A stretch of 64,000 nt of DNA, from the UHGV virus genome UHGV-1366990. The stretch is one strand, 5' to 3'. Below the pieces are notes generated by a model, which was not told the DNA's origin, did no database searches, and saw only the letters and a list, made by a program, of their open reading frames with translations. Each line of letters opens with the position of its first letter. Position 1 is the stretch's first letter. This DNA comes from a virus. A program made the position numbers and the translations under genes. Of the stretch, positions 54,927 through 64,000 are shown one piece after another.

Positions 54927-57900
54927 ATGGCTAATAAACCAACACAGCCTGTTTTCCCTCTCGGTCTGGCGGCTGAAGAGCAGTCTACTTTGGCTGGTGT
55001 CCTCAACACGGGTACGATTGAGCATGGACCAGATGCTGTCCTGACTTTACCCGAGGGTAATGCCAGCGCAGGACTCCCGTCTTCCGTTCGCTACAATGCC
55101 GACTCCGACGAATTTGAGGGCTTCTATGAAAATGGTGGATGGTTGCCGCTGGGTGGCGGTGGTATCCGCTGGGAAGTCCTTCCGCATGCCTCTACGACAA
55201 CACTCACTGAAGGGCGAGGCTATCTCATTAATAATACCACAGGGGCGTCTACAGTGGTTCTCCCGCTCCCTACGCGCATTGGTGATTCTGTTACTGTCTG
55301 TGACATGTATGGGAAGTTCTCTGTCTATCCACTGACCATTGACCCGAATGGAAAGGCTATGTATGGGAATGTGGAGGCCATGACGATCTCCACAGACAGC
55401 GCGACCGCAACGTTCACCTGGACTGGAGATGCTCGTGGCTGGATTATCACAGCAGGCGTCGGCCTGGGCCAGGGGCGTGTCTACAGCCGAAACATCTATA
55501 CCGATACTCTGGGCTTCCCAACCTCCGAAGTCACCCTGACAACCCAGCCACTTATCGTTGATGTCTATGTTGATGGTAAGCGCCTGGTGGAGTCCAAATA
55601 CTCCCTGAGTGGTTATGAAGTTCGCTTCAGCCCATCTCTTCCGGCTGGTGTTGAATTGCAGGTTGTTCAGTACGTTCCGATCCAATTGGGTCTCGGGTCT
55701 GGCGGGTCTGACAGCGGTATCACTCCTTGGGTCTACAACGGCGGTGCTGCAGTTGGCGGCGAAACCACTATCTCTGTTCCAGACTTGGCGCTGGGTGTTC
55801 CGTTCATCACCATCAACGGATATGCCAACTACCCTGGATTTGCGTACAGCTATGATGCAGGTGCCCACGTCCTCACCTTTGGTACTCCACTGGAAGCAGG
55901 CGACATGGTTGTCCTTATGCTGTCTGGTGAAGTTGCTGGGAATATCCCGGTCAACACCAGCGCAGGCTTCCTGGCGATAGAGGCACTGCGTCGCACCTAT
56001 GCCGAAGCGGGTTACAACCTGGTCGGAGGGAGTTTCGGTCGTGGTGGCACTGTCAACACAGCAACTGATGTTCTGCTCAATGAAGTGGATGGAAAGGCTT
56101 ATTCCTGGGGTGGAACTTTGCCTAAGACTGTGCCAGCTGATAGTACTCCCATCAGTAGTGGCGGGCTTGGAATTAGTGCGTGGGTGGATAGATCTGCTGC
56201 ACCTAATAGCTTTACTCAGACCGGAGCAGGAGCGGTTACAAGACCCGCTCAAGACAAAATGCGTGAAGAGTATAGCGTTCAGGACTTTGGGGCCAAAGTG
56301 AATAGTGGAGTGGATGAGACAGACAATATTAAGAAATGCCTTGCTCATGTAAAAGCGAAAGGCGGGAGAGCTAAAATTAACTTCCAGCCTGGGGAGTATA
56401 TGGTTCGTGGAACGGAGCTAATTGTCGATTTTTCTAATGTCATGTTGGAAGGTTATGGGGCCATACTTAAGCTTGTTGATAGCCCGACGGCGATTCAAGG
56501 CCCTGTGCTCAAGATTGCCCAGTACGGTGATCCAACTGTAAGGGGGACAGTTGAGAACGTCATAGTCAAAGGGTTCACGATTTATGGTAATAAGCTGAAT
56601 CAAATTCAAACCATGAACGCAGGTGGGGATGCGAACAATCCCGGATTTGTGTCTGAGGATGTCGTTAATTTGCATGTAGAGGACGTTATTGTCTATGATT
56701 GTGACGGTTATGGATTCCTCTTTGCTGGTTCAAACCTCCCCCATCGCAAGGGTGCGTACTTCAAGAACTGCTGGGCATTCGGTAACAACGTTGACGGATT
56801 TGATATCAAGGCAGGGTTTAACCATGTCACTCTCGACAGTTGCAGGTCGTGGGGTAACGGCTACGCGCCCATAGTTGCCCTACGCTCCGGAATGGGGTTC
56901 GATACCCGTGGCAAAGACGTTACCTTGATTAACTGCGTAGGTGGGGATGAGGGTAGCAACTATGCTGGCAACTTCCGCGTGCGCGAAAACGCAGAGGCGG
57001 GAATCTCATTCCTGGGGTGCCATAGCTATAACTCGCCTAATGGTACTTACGGCTTTATGTGCATAGGTGGTGGAAATACCAACGTGTCACTGATAGGCTG
57101 TACGTCTTCCAATGACGGAACCTCTATTAAGCATGAGCGAGGACACCTTACAGTAGTAGGGTTCAGGTCATGGAAGCCGAAGCTTCTGAGTATCCTGCAA
57201 TACCCGTCACAGTTTGTGTTGAGCACACTGACAGAAGCAGCTACATTCAGTTCCTATGGCGAATCGGTTACTATTTATCCTAGTGATTATCTCAGCGCTA
57301 CCGTAGGTTCTGAAATCAAGATCCCAACCGATGCTGGGACGATTTACCTCCTGGTTACACAGGCAGTTGCATCTACGCTGGTGTGTACGGTTCTGCGTGG
57401 AAATCTGGGGACGGCTGCGGCAGGAGCGAGTATCACTACTGTATCGACGGGAAGCCTGACGGTACATGGCGGAATATCTTATCAGTCTGCTGGTGATGCT
57501 GTTCAGTTTGCGTCTACCTTACAAACCCTTACTGATAGTTCAATGCCTGCAACTTTTAACGGGTTCGTTATAGAGGCACCAACCCGTTACGGAGTGAATT
57601 TTCAGGGTGGCGATGTGAGTTTTTATGGTGGCGCAATTCGAAACTGTGGCAAAGGGTCATCCTCCCCTGGATTTTTCGTCGGCAATGCAGCTACTGCTGA
57701 ATCGACATTCCGGTTGGACAGTGTATTCATGGGTAATGACGACAAATCTTTCACGCAGTCAGCTGGCATTCAGTTCCAGTCAACAAGCCTGGCGAAAGGG
57801 AGCGTTAGAGCGTGTAAATTCGCCGATAATGCCAACTCGCCAGTCATTGGCTCGCCATCTTCTGGTGTGCGGTTTGCAGACAATATCGGCTACACCAACG

Positions 57901-58166
57901 AGGGCACATTCTCTACAACAATTGATGTGACAACTGTTGGGGTGAAAACATTCTCAATTCCGCATGGGCTAAGCAAAGCACCTTCTGGTAAAGATGTGCA
58001 ACTGACCATCCAGCGGTCTGGGGCGGCGAATGACTACGTTCTCTCCACTCCGATGATTACCGGAGCAAGTTCTACAATTATTTCTGGGAGGGTGTCCGTA
58101 CTCACGGCTAGCGCAACCGCAGGTGAAGTCGCAACAGTAAACGCATTCATCAGCGCCAACCCATAG
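54927..58166 (+). CDS. tailspike protein with right-handed beta-helix (pectin-lyase-fold) domain
   Basis: 1080 aa from the ATG at 54927; beta-helix repeat signatures (NCWAFGNNVDGFDIKAGFNHVTLDSCRSWGNG, VTLINCVGG, VSLIGCTSS); receptor-binding-protein motif YSWGGTLPKTVPADSTPISSGGLG. Confidence 0.65.
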   Translation: MANKPTQPVFPLGLAAEEQSTLAGVLNTGTIEHGPDAVLTLPEGNASAGLPSSVRYNADSDEFEGFYENGGWLPLGGGGIRWEVLPHASTTTLTEGRGYLINNTTGASTVVLPLPTRIGDSVTVCDMYGKFSVYPLTIDPNGKAMYGNVEAMTISTDSATATFTWTGDARGWIITAGVGLGQGRVYSRNIYTDTLGFPTSEVTLTTQPLIVDVYVDGKRLVESKYSLSGYEVRFSPSLPAGVELQVVQYVPIQLGLGSGGSDSGITPWVYNGGAAVGGETTISVPDLALGVPFITINGYANYPGFAYSYDAGAHVLTFGTPLEAGDMVVLMLSGEVAGNIPVNTSAGFLAIEALRRTYAEAGYNLVGGSFGRGGTVNTATDVLLNEVDGKAYSWGGTLPKTVPADSTPISSGGLGISAWVDRSAAPNSFTQTGAGAVTRPAQDKMREEYSVQDFGAKVNSGVDETDNIKKCLAHVKAKGGRAKINFQPGEYMVRGTELIVDFSNVMLEGYGAILKLVDSPTAIQGPVLKIAQYGDPTVRGTVENVIVKGFTIYGNKLNQIQTMNAGGDANNPGFVSEDVVNLHVEDVIVYDCDGYGFLFAGSNLPHRKGAYFKNCWAFGNNVDGFDIKAGFNHVTLDSCRSWGNGYAPIVALRSGMGFDTRGKDVTLINCVGGDEGSNYAGNFRVRENAEAGISFLGCHSYNSPNGTYGFMCIGGGNTNVSLIGCTSSNDGTSIKHERGHLTVVGFRSWKPKLLSILQYPSQFVLSTLTEAATFSSYGESVTIYPSDYLSATVGSEIKIPTDAGTIYLLVTQAVASTLVCTVLRGNLGTAAAGASITTVSTGSLTVHGGISYQSAGDAVQFASTLQTLTDSSMPATFNGFVIEAPTRYGVNFQGGDVSFYGGAIRNCGKGSSSPGFFVGNAATAESTFRLDSVFMGNDDKSFTQSAGIQFQSTSLAKGSVRACKFADNANSPVIGSPSSGVRFADNIGYTNEGTFSTTIDVTTVGVKTFSIPHGLSKAPSGKDVQLTIQRSGAANDYVLSTPMITGASSTIISGRVSVLTASATAGEVATVNAFISANP

Positions 58167-58364
58167 GGCGCAGGAGGAAGTGGAACGGGATCGAACCAGC
58201 GCATGAAAAGCTGGTAGCTGAGTCATATGTTATTGGTGAGAAATATGGCATCCGGTATGAAGAAGCGTTGGTGATGGAAGCCGCTCTTCAGAGACGCAAT
58301 TACCAACGCCTTCTGAATCGTATTGAAGCGCTGGAGAATAAGTAACAAACACCCCCATCTACGG

Positions 58365-58385
58365 ATGGGGTTATTACTAGAATAA
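58365..58385 (+). terminator. hairpin CCCCCATC-tacg-GATGGGG
   Basis: 7-bp stem followed by TTATTACT; lies between two tailspike genes. Confidence 0.35.
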
Positions 58386-58398
58386 TCAGAGGTAAATC

Positions 58399-63513: not shown

Positions 63514-63524
63514 CGGAGTCTTTA

Positions 63525-63818
63525 ATGAACATTGACATATCTCCTATTCTTCACGCCCTGGTCGCTACCGCCCTGCAAGCAATTGCGGGGTTACTCTTGG
63601 GGGACTGGGTAATCGGAGCAGTAATGGGCTGCACGTTCTTCGCCGCCCGTGAGCACACTCAGGCTGAATACAGATGGATCTCCCAGTCCGGTAAGGGTAA
63701 GCGATCCAACATGCCTTGGTATGGCGGGTTTGACTACCGGGCGTGGGATATCCCGAGCCTCCTGGACTGGTTGGTTCCTGTAGTTGGATGTACAGCGTTG
63801 TATTTCATAGCAGCATAA
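63525..63818 (+). CDS. small two-TM membrane protein (paralog of 60489-60788)
   Basis: 97 aa; SD GACGGAG; paralogous to 60489-60788; downstream of the esterase tailspike gene. Confidence 0.6.
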   Translation: MNIDISPILHALVATALQAIAGLLLGDWVIGAVMGCTFFAAREHTQAEYRWISQSGKGKRSNMPWYGGFDYRAWDIPSLLDWLVPVVGCTALYFIAA

Positions 63819-63856
63819 GGCATTTGCCTGATTTATAAGAATATCAGAGGTGATTA

Positions 63857-64000
63857 TGAAACAGTTATTCAATCAAGGCGGGCAGGGTTCTACGGGAATC
63901 ATGTCCAACAAACAGGCGATTGCTCGGCGCTTCGGTGTCAAGCAATCAGAGGTCGTATACTTCTCCAGCGGTCAGGCGCTGACCGGGTTTAAGGTTATCT
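63857..64000 (+). CDS. tailspike protein, N-terminal fragment (continues beyond window)
   Basis: SD GAGGTGA; MKQLFNQGGQGSTGIMSNKQAIARRFGVKQSEVVYFSSG parallels the N-terminus of the 58399 gene. Confidence 0.6.

Follow-up and report, generated by a model that had tools for sequence, protein, structure and literature searches.

A probable Agtrevirus-type tsp1-4 cluster with a predicted SGNH-esterase spike and exchanged tailspike cassettes in virus genome UHGV-1366990

The virus genome UHGV-1366990, analysed here as a stretch of 64,000 nucleotides (the window), carries at its right-hand end four consecutive receptor-binding genes, which we name TSP4, TSP3, TSP2 and TSP1 because their N-termini match the tailspikes of phage CBA120 and because they follow the gene order of the Agtrevirus phage MK-13 (Table 1). 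A row of four such genes had been proposed from the sequence alone (hereafter the original prediction); its starts for the three complete genes hold, while the partial gene opens with an ATG at 63856, one base before the 63857 that had been given. Two small membrane-protein genes (TM1 and TM2) and a truncated open reading frame (ORF), absent from the original prediction, lie between the spike genes. All genes of the window between 50 and 64 kb are on the plus strand.

Table 1. Features of the tailspike cluster and of its surroundings in the 64,000-nucleotide window.
Feature	Position	Strand	Remarks
TSP4	54927-58166	+	1079 aa
TSP3	58399-60480	+	693 aa
TSP2	61084-63513	+	809 aa
TSP1, 5' end	63856-64000	+	48 codons, TD1 start; continues past the window edge
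TM1, phrog_1443 membrane protein	60495-60788	+	97 aa
TM2, phrog_1443 membrane protein	63525-63818	+	97 aa
Exchanged cassette 1: TSP3 body, TM1 and truncated downstream ORF	58853-60976	+	
Exchanged cassette 2: TSP2 predicted esterase body and TM2 codons 1-41	61591-63648	+	
Truncated remnant ORF	60879-61007	+	42 codons; phrog_3893
TSP4-TSP3 spacer	58167-58398	+	232 nt
gp6-like baseplate protein	50993-52822	+	
Baseplate wedge subunit	52806-53660	+	Pfam PF23786, E 1e-147
Fibre-like conserved protein	53663-54874	+	403 aa; phrog_3838, function unknown; between baseplate wedge and TSP4

We placed the N-termini of the spikes on solved structures by a sequence search of the PDB. The first 334 amino acids (aa) of TSP4 match CBA120 TSP4-N (7REJ/7RFO) from residue 1 (E 7e-135), comprising the baseplate anchor and the domains XD1-XD3, and a TD1 domain follows at aa 366-421 (Pfam Tail_spike_N, E 1.8e-14). 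TSP2 aa 1-162 match aa 1-162 of full-length CBA120 TSP2 (6W4Q, E 9e-65), which corresponds to XD2-XD3; this module is found in 288 phage records, by name almost all of them from Ackermannviridae. Since the CBA120 alignments begin at residue 1 of both products, the starts at 54927 and 61084 are favoured, and the upstream starts at 54897 (TSP4) and 61069 (TSP2) were rejected. TSP3 opens with a TD1/TD2 assembly module (aa 1-165, with Tail_spike_N at aa 91-155), of which aa 2-163 match CBA120 TSP1 (4OJ5, E 1.5e-66), CBA120 TSP3 (6NW9, E 1.6e-62) and gp63.1 of phage G7C (4QNL, E 6e-58).

Two pairs of genes had been predicted to share N-terminal modules, and in both cases the similarity proved significant on alignment. 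The first 48 aa of TSP1 are identical to the TSP3 N-terminus at 33 positions (69%, E 1e-19). TSP4 and TSP2 have in common a domain of about 65 aa (aa 267-332 and aa 20-79, respectively; 38% identity, E 2e-5), and the same TSP4 domain also matches TSP2 aa 99-157 (E 0.047), so that it occurs twice in tandem in TSP2. Weak as it is, the similarity is real, since both N-termini have a match among the solved CBA120 structures. From these matches, the N-terminal domains of TSP4 and TSP2 that had been described as beta-sandwich-like are assigned as gp10-like XD domains.

The arrangement of attachment modules with swapped enzymatic bodies, which the original prediction had recognised, is the published TSP1-4 architecture of Ackermannviridae, built from anchor, XD1-3 and TD1/TD2 domains (Plattner 2019, as reported in PMC8432352 and PMC11414711). 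In the published assignments, TSP4 provides the anchor and XD1-3, TSP2 provides XD2-XD3, and TSP1 and TSP3 bear TD1 heads; XD2-XD2 contacts couple TSP2 to TSP4, and the XD3 domains capture the TD1 heads (PMC11414711, PMC8432352). The locus resembles the CBA120 complex (Plattner et al. 2019; Chao et al. 2022; Sorensen et al. 2021, PMC8432352) in gene order and location, in a TSP4 with anchor, XD1-3 and TD1, in a TSP2 with XD2-XD3, in TD1 heads on TSP1 and TSP3 and in variable C-terminal bodies. It adjoins upstream genes for a gp6-like protein, a baseplate wedge and a fibre-like protein, the location in which tsp clusters lie in Ackermannviridae, and its order of tsp genes is that of MK-13. In a sister contig (L007), TSP1 has 534 aa and a Tail_spike_N domain, and the next gene is DUF4815/VriC. 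The genome backbone points to the same group: positions 25001-50000 are 96% identical, over 84-97% of their length, to the E. coli Agtrevirus phages vB_EcoM-ZQ1, PC3 and AV101, and where the cluster begins, identity to Agtrevirus phages is 88-95%.

We therefore hold with considerable confidence that these are the tsp1-4 genes for host recognition of an E. coli-type Agtrevirus (Ackermannviridae), located between the baseplate-wedge and fibre genes and, past the window edge, VriC; that they encode a branched complex of four bodies in which TSP2 is an SGNH esterase; and that the cluster has been shaped by cassette exchange. On the CBA120 model, the anchor domain of TSP4 would dock to the baseplate, the XD2 domains of TSP4 and TSP2 would bind one another, and TSP1 and TSP3 would be attached through their TD1 heads, caught by XD3 of TSP4 and TSP2. 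The outcome would be a single branched complex carrying four different polysaccharide-specific bodies. The broad or multi-receptor host range that had been predicted would follow by analogy with relatives for which it has been shown experimentally, AV101 recognising four O-antigens (PMC10791037).

The SGNH blocks GDSLS (aa 219-223) and GMNDG (aa 308-312), on which the prediction of an esterase spike had been based, are present in TSP2, and Pfam Lipase_GDSL_2 matches aa 218-392 above its curated cut-off (E 1.5e-12). An inserted beta-sandwich of about 150 aa ahead of block V cuts the match short at profile position 155 of 178. We aligned 30 homologues of the esterase body, which are 30-97% identical (residue numbers are those of the 809-aa protein). 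All 30 share G219, the Asp and S221 of block I, G261 of block II (in NRAIGG), G308-M-N310-D311 of block III, and N568, N571 and H572 of the block V motif DGGNGINHPT; within the latter, NHPT is invariant as a whole and the Asp at position -7 is at least 90% conserved.

An AlphaFold (AF2) model of TSP2, built on the homologue alignment (pLDDT 87, pTM 0.86), shows the three-layer alpha/beta/alpha, flavodoxin-like SGNH fold. A neck joins XD2-XD3 to the alpha/beta esterase core (aa ~209-396), which is followed by the inserted beta-sandwich (aa ~397-549), the block V helices bearing His572 (aa ~556-591) and a C-terminal LamG/ConA-like beta-sandwich (aa ~604-809). For the sandwiches, the matches are lectin-type domains (LamG/neurexin, botulinum-toxin Hc and CBM40). 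Foldseek searches with the model retrieve G7C gp63.1 (4QNL, E 7e-8), with a very poor superposition of the whole chain (TM 0.16), and the solved spikes 9D84 and 9D80 have the same TD1-neck-GDS layout.

Some observations weigh against the cluster assignment or against the activity proposed for TSP2. Unlike its CBA120 counterpart, TSP2 has no TD1 domain, and the Pfam scan gave no match to the body of TSP3, whose beta-helix fold is presumed. Of the catalytic residues whose conservation the original prediction had made its touchstone, Ser and His stand, as do the Gly and Asn of the family, but Asp is not at its canonical place: the block V Asp expected three residues before His572 is replaced by Gly (NGINH), and the Asn residues at -1 and -4 are invariant. 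Finally, the phage anhysbys, a carrier of the same esterase body, was isolated on K-12, a host without O-antigen; its record therefore gives no clue to the substrate.

Without the canonical Asp, the chemistry would need a Ser-His dyad or another acid. SGNH esterases that use a Ser-His dyad exist, for example those of family CE2. Together with the invariance of Ser, Gly, Asn and His in blocks I, II, III and V down to 30% identity, which is an active-site-like pattern, their existence argues against a catalytically inactive SGNH domain that would serve only for carbohydrate binding or structure and leave recognition to the LamG-like domains; the missing DxxH Asp and the two lectin-like beta-sandwiches of TSP2 would suit such a domain, and we consider it improbable. 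From motifs and model, TSP2 is a probable carbohydrate O-acetyl-esterase, which may work through a dyad or a non-canonical acid.

Two characterised spikes offer a precedent. The gp63.1 tailspike of G7C has an SGNH esterase body that deacetylates O-antigen without cleaving it (PDB 4QNL; Prokhorov et al. 2017, as cited in PMC8432352 and PMC10892097), and its N-terminal TD1-type module is homologous to the TSP3 and TSP1 heads described here. In contrast, phmmer and profile searches detected no sequence similarity between its esterase and that of TSP2, and 4QNL was matched through its N-terminal TD-type regions only. The TSP2 esterase also differs from gp63.1 in being mounted on XD2-XD3 instead of TD1, and in having an inserted beta-sandwich and a C-terminal LamG-like domain. 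By analogy, TSP2 would work like gp63.1 while standing outside its sequence family. Vi01, the type phage of Ackermannviridae, uses an acetyl-esterase tailspike on Vi capsule (Pickard et al. 2010, as cited in PMC10892097 and PMC11721090), and is thus a case of an Ackermannviridae spike with an acetyl-esterase body for an acetylated surface polysaccharide. A tblastn search of the phage collection with the esterase body gave no Ackermannviridae record at E < 1e-3, so the TSP2 esterase probably belongs to a lineage other than that of Vi01. On the model of G7C gp63.1 and the Vi01 spike, TSP2 would most likely bind O-acetylated O-antigen or capsule and strip its acetyl groups without cleaving the backbone.

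Among isolates the esterase body is rare, with relatives in anhysbys (Phapecoctavirus, 97%), a Kayfunavirus (52%) and N4-like Pectobacterium phages (25%). In metagenomes its homologues carry Tail_spike_N, tail-collar or T7-tail N-termini. These data bear on whether the enzyme could target O-acetylated peptidoglycan (in the manner of Ape1) or a lipid and serve envelope penetration instead of host recognition. The esterase is an exchangeable distal tailspike body whose homologues replace glycanase bodies on many types of adaptor, and sister phages swap it exactly like a receptor-binding module; moreover, the spike esterases of G7C and Vi01 act on surface polysaccharide, according to the summaries in PMC8432352 and PMC10892097. 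We consider a peptidoglycan or lipid target very improbable, even more so than an inactive domain.

All three complete bodies of the cluster differ from those of isolated Ackermannviridae, and in TSP2 a predicted esterase stands in place of the beta-helix glycanase of CBA120. The bodies of TSP4 and TSP3 had no close relative among the isolated phages searched. That of TSP4 consists of a right-handed beta-helix and C-terminal domains, with weak Pfam matches to Beta_helix and Pect-lyase, and that of TSP3 is presumed to be a receptor-binding beta-helix; both are presumed to be glycanases. Homologues of the TSP3 body in metagenomes sit on Tail_spike_N, P22 Head_binding or other N-termini.

The spacer between TSP4 and TSP3 is unusually long, the equivalent one in MK-13 having about 80 nt. 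It contains a 60-codon open frame without a start codon (…EKYGIRYEEALVMEAALQRRNYQRLLNRIEALENK*), which opens across the TSP4 stop codon in another frame and ends at 58345, and a terminator scan placed a hairpin terminator-like site at 58353-58370. No DNA match to the spacer was found in phages, and at the protein level Erwinia phage UCB24 gave the sole match, a weak one (62% over 45 aa, E 5e-5).

We mapped the junctions of the bodies by blastn. Cassette 1 (58853-60976) is 91.1% identical at the nucleotide level, over 2126 bp, to positions 5458-7582 of a temperate lambdoid E. coli-type prophage (L016), in which the order is GpJ, a 694-aa tailspike, a 97-aa ORF, a 105-aa ORF and integrase. Such identity indicates that a lytic Agtrevirus and a temperate siphovirus have recently exchanged this block. 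The left junction lies at TSP3 aa 151, the end of TD1, and coincides with a recombination site proposed by Sorensen et al. 2021 (PMC8432352). Further to the right, positions 60571-61000 are 91.4% identical to an E. coli prophage (L003) and 94.7% to a Klebsiella P22-like prophage (L013). The truncated ORF lies within a 67-aa frame (60804-61007), with a likely ATG at 60879, and covers only profile positions 1-41 of the 79 in phrog_3893, a 79-aa prophage gene; since the identity to L003 ends at 61000, this ORF is probably a recombination scar.

Cassette 2 (61591-63648) is 96.9% identical at the nucleotide level to Escherichia phage anhysbys. Its borders are also seen in the metagenomic sister phage L007, which is collinear (90.5%) up to 61610, that is TSP2 aa ~175, just past XD3, then carries a different TSP2 of 586 aa, and resumes identity (95%) exactly at 63525. 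In anhysbys the counterpart is gp245 (YP_009985605, 'hypothetical protein'). At both nucleotide and protein level the two phages are 96.9% identical along the whole esterase body and onward through the intergenic spacer to codon 37-41 of the membrane gene; gp245 has a different, short N-terminal adaptor (~50 aa). The anhysbys segment (NC_052656, 7848-10445) comprises the esterase gene, a phrog_1443 gene cut to 42 codons and then a 102-aa remnant of an Ackermannviridae TSP1/3 head, all of them annotated as hypothetical or tail proteins. The presence of this remnant implies that the segment passed from an Ackermannviridae donor into Phapecoctavirus. The cluster thus diversifies by cassette exchange: the left junction falls at the end of a conserved N-terminal module (TD1 or the XD3 neck), and the right junction in, or just ahead of, the conserved gene for a 97-aa membrane protein, which moves along with the body.

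That gene is present twice in the cluster, whereas MK-13 has neither the two phrog_1443 genes nor the remnant ORF, nor any other small ORF between its tsp genes. TM1 and TM2 are paralogues (62% identical, E 6e-49), both with three predicted helices, and match phrog_1443 over 93-94 of its 97 profile positions (E 2e-37 and 2e-41). The family counts 255 homologous clusters and has a nearly invariant core (AREHTQAEYRW...GKRxNMPWWGGF...LDWxVP); the AF2 model of TM2 has three helices (pLDDT 79). Recombination junctions fall at TM1 codon ~28, at TM2 codon ~41 and at the TM2 start codon. In every context inspected, a receptor-binding gene stands just ahead of the phrog_1443 gene, either directly or with one small ORF between them: the latter is found after the side tail fibre of phage 21, where it is CPT_21_24, in GpJ-type prophages of E. 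coli and Leclercia, between tailspike and holins in an epsilon15-like prophage, in P22-like prophages (in one upstream of gtrABC) and in two other Ackermannviridae, L007 and L012. We conclude that phrog_1443 moves together with spike bodies and delimits the exchanged cassette on its right side.

The L012 contig, in which the gene follows TSP4, is a phage-sized contig of 160 kb within a Salmonella enterica assembly (GCA_019193935.1). Kuttervirus KFSST3 (L018), apparently with three tsp genes only, has an unannotated phrog_1443 remnant after TSP2. The tblastn match list of phrog_1443 contained no Agtrevirus isolate. Scans of Pfam, NCBIfam and PADLOC gave no match for TM1, TM2 or the 67-aa ORF, a Foldseek search of BFVD with the TM model returned the truncated anhysbys copy only, and literature searches brought nothing relevant on a small membrane gene downstream of tailspikes. 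The possibility of a Wzy (alpha-polymerase) inhibitor like epsilon15 gp21 was rejected (hhalign probability 1%).

Does the gene have a function in a lytic phage? Both copies are full length and each keeps all 29 family-invariant residues. The family is under purifying selection, with a median pairwise ratio of non-synonymous to synonymous substitution (dN/dS) of 0.16, and between TM2 and the L007 copy, two Ackermannviridae genes, this ratio (omega) is 0.06 (dN 0.014, dS 0.238). Judged by this conservation, the phrog_1443 product is probably a working protein. The same figures stand against the view that the TM genes and the remnant ORF are hitch-hiking recombination scars, functionless in a lytic phage, a view that would account for the arrival of the TM genes with temperate-phage cassettes, for the truncation of the neighbouring ORF and of the anhysbys copy, and for the absence of TM genes from most Agtrevirus isolates; we put its chances only slightly below even.

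A more specific proposal, which we make tentatively and regard as rather doubtful, is that the phrog_1443 protein is a functional partner of polysaccharide-specific receptor-binding proteins (RBPs), and forms with them a two-gene mobile cassette shared across temperate siphoviruses, P22-like and epsilon15-like podoviruses and lytic Ackermannviridae. Its conserved core would then serve additionally as the 3' homology arm when cassettes are exchanged. In P22-like and epsilon15-like phages, genes for O-antigen modification or exclusion sit 'behind the RBP' (PMC10408124). As the phrog_1443 gene occupies a matching slot, its product could, going by position, be a new inner-membrane factor for superinfection exclusion or for the modulation of surface polysaccharide, which might act for example by blocking DNA entry or by interfering with O-antigen or capsule export.

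Upstream of TSP4, the 403-aa fibre-like protein contains internal repeats of the type NTSTYNxKMxSLDxSI, with self-similar blocks at ~54300-54540, and is probably an extra fibre or a coiled-coil component of the baseplate.

A cluster of four tailspikes is a textbook Ackermannviridae system, and esterase spikes are known from Vi01 and G7C gp63.1; the spike in the TSP2 slot would be of the less common, sugar-deacetylase type. Novelty is thus limited to the new subtypes of body and to the structure of the cassettes with their linked membrane gene. The cluster adds three tailspike bodies that are new to isolated Ackermannviridae, one of them from an esterase lineage so far recorded only as 'hypothetical' in Phapecoctavirus; while the architecture and the idea are established, these bodies are useful for the prediction of host range and for the engineering of chimeric spikes. 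The evolutionary lead is the more useful one. The mapped junctions reveal recent traffic of cassettes (91-97% nucleotide identity) among a lytic Agtrevirus, a temperate lambdoid prophage and a Phapecoctavirus, with a conserved small membrane-protein gene as the right-hand border. If phrog_1443 is functional, it would represent an uncharacterised, widespread accessory of receptor-binding proteins in enterobacterial phages.

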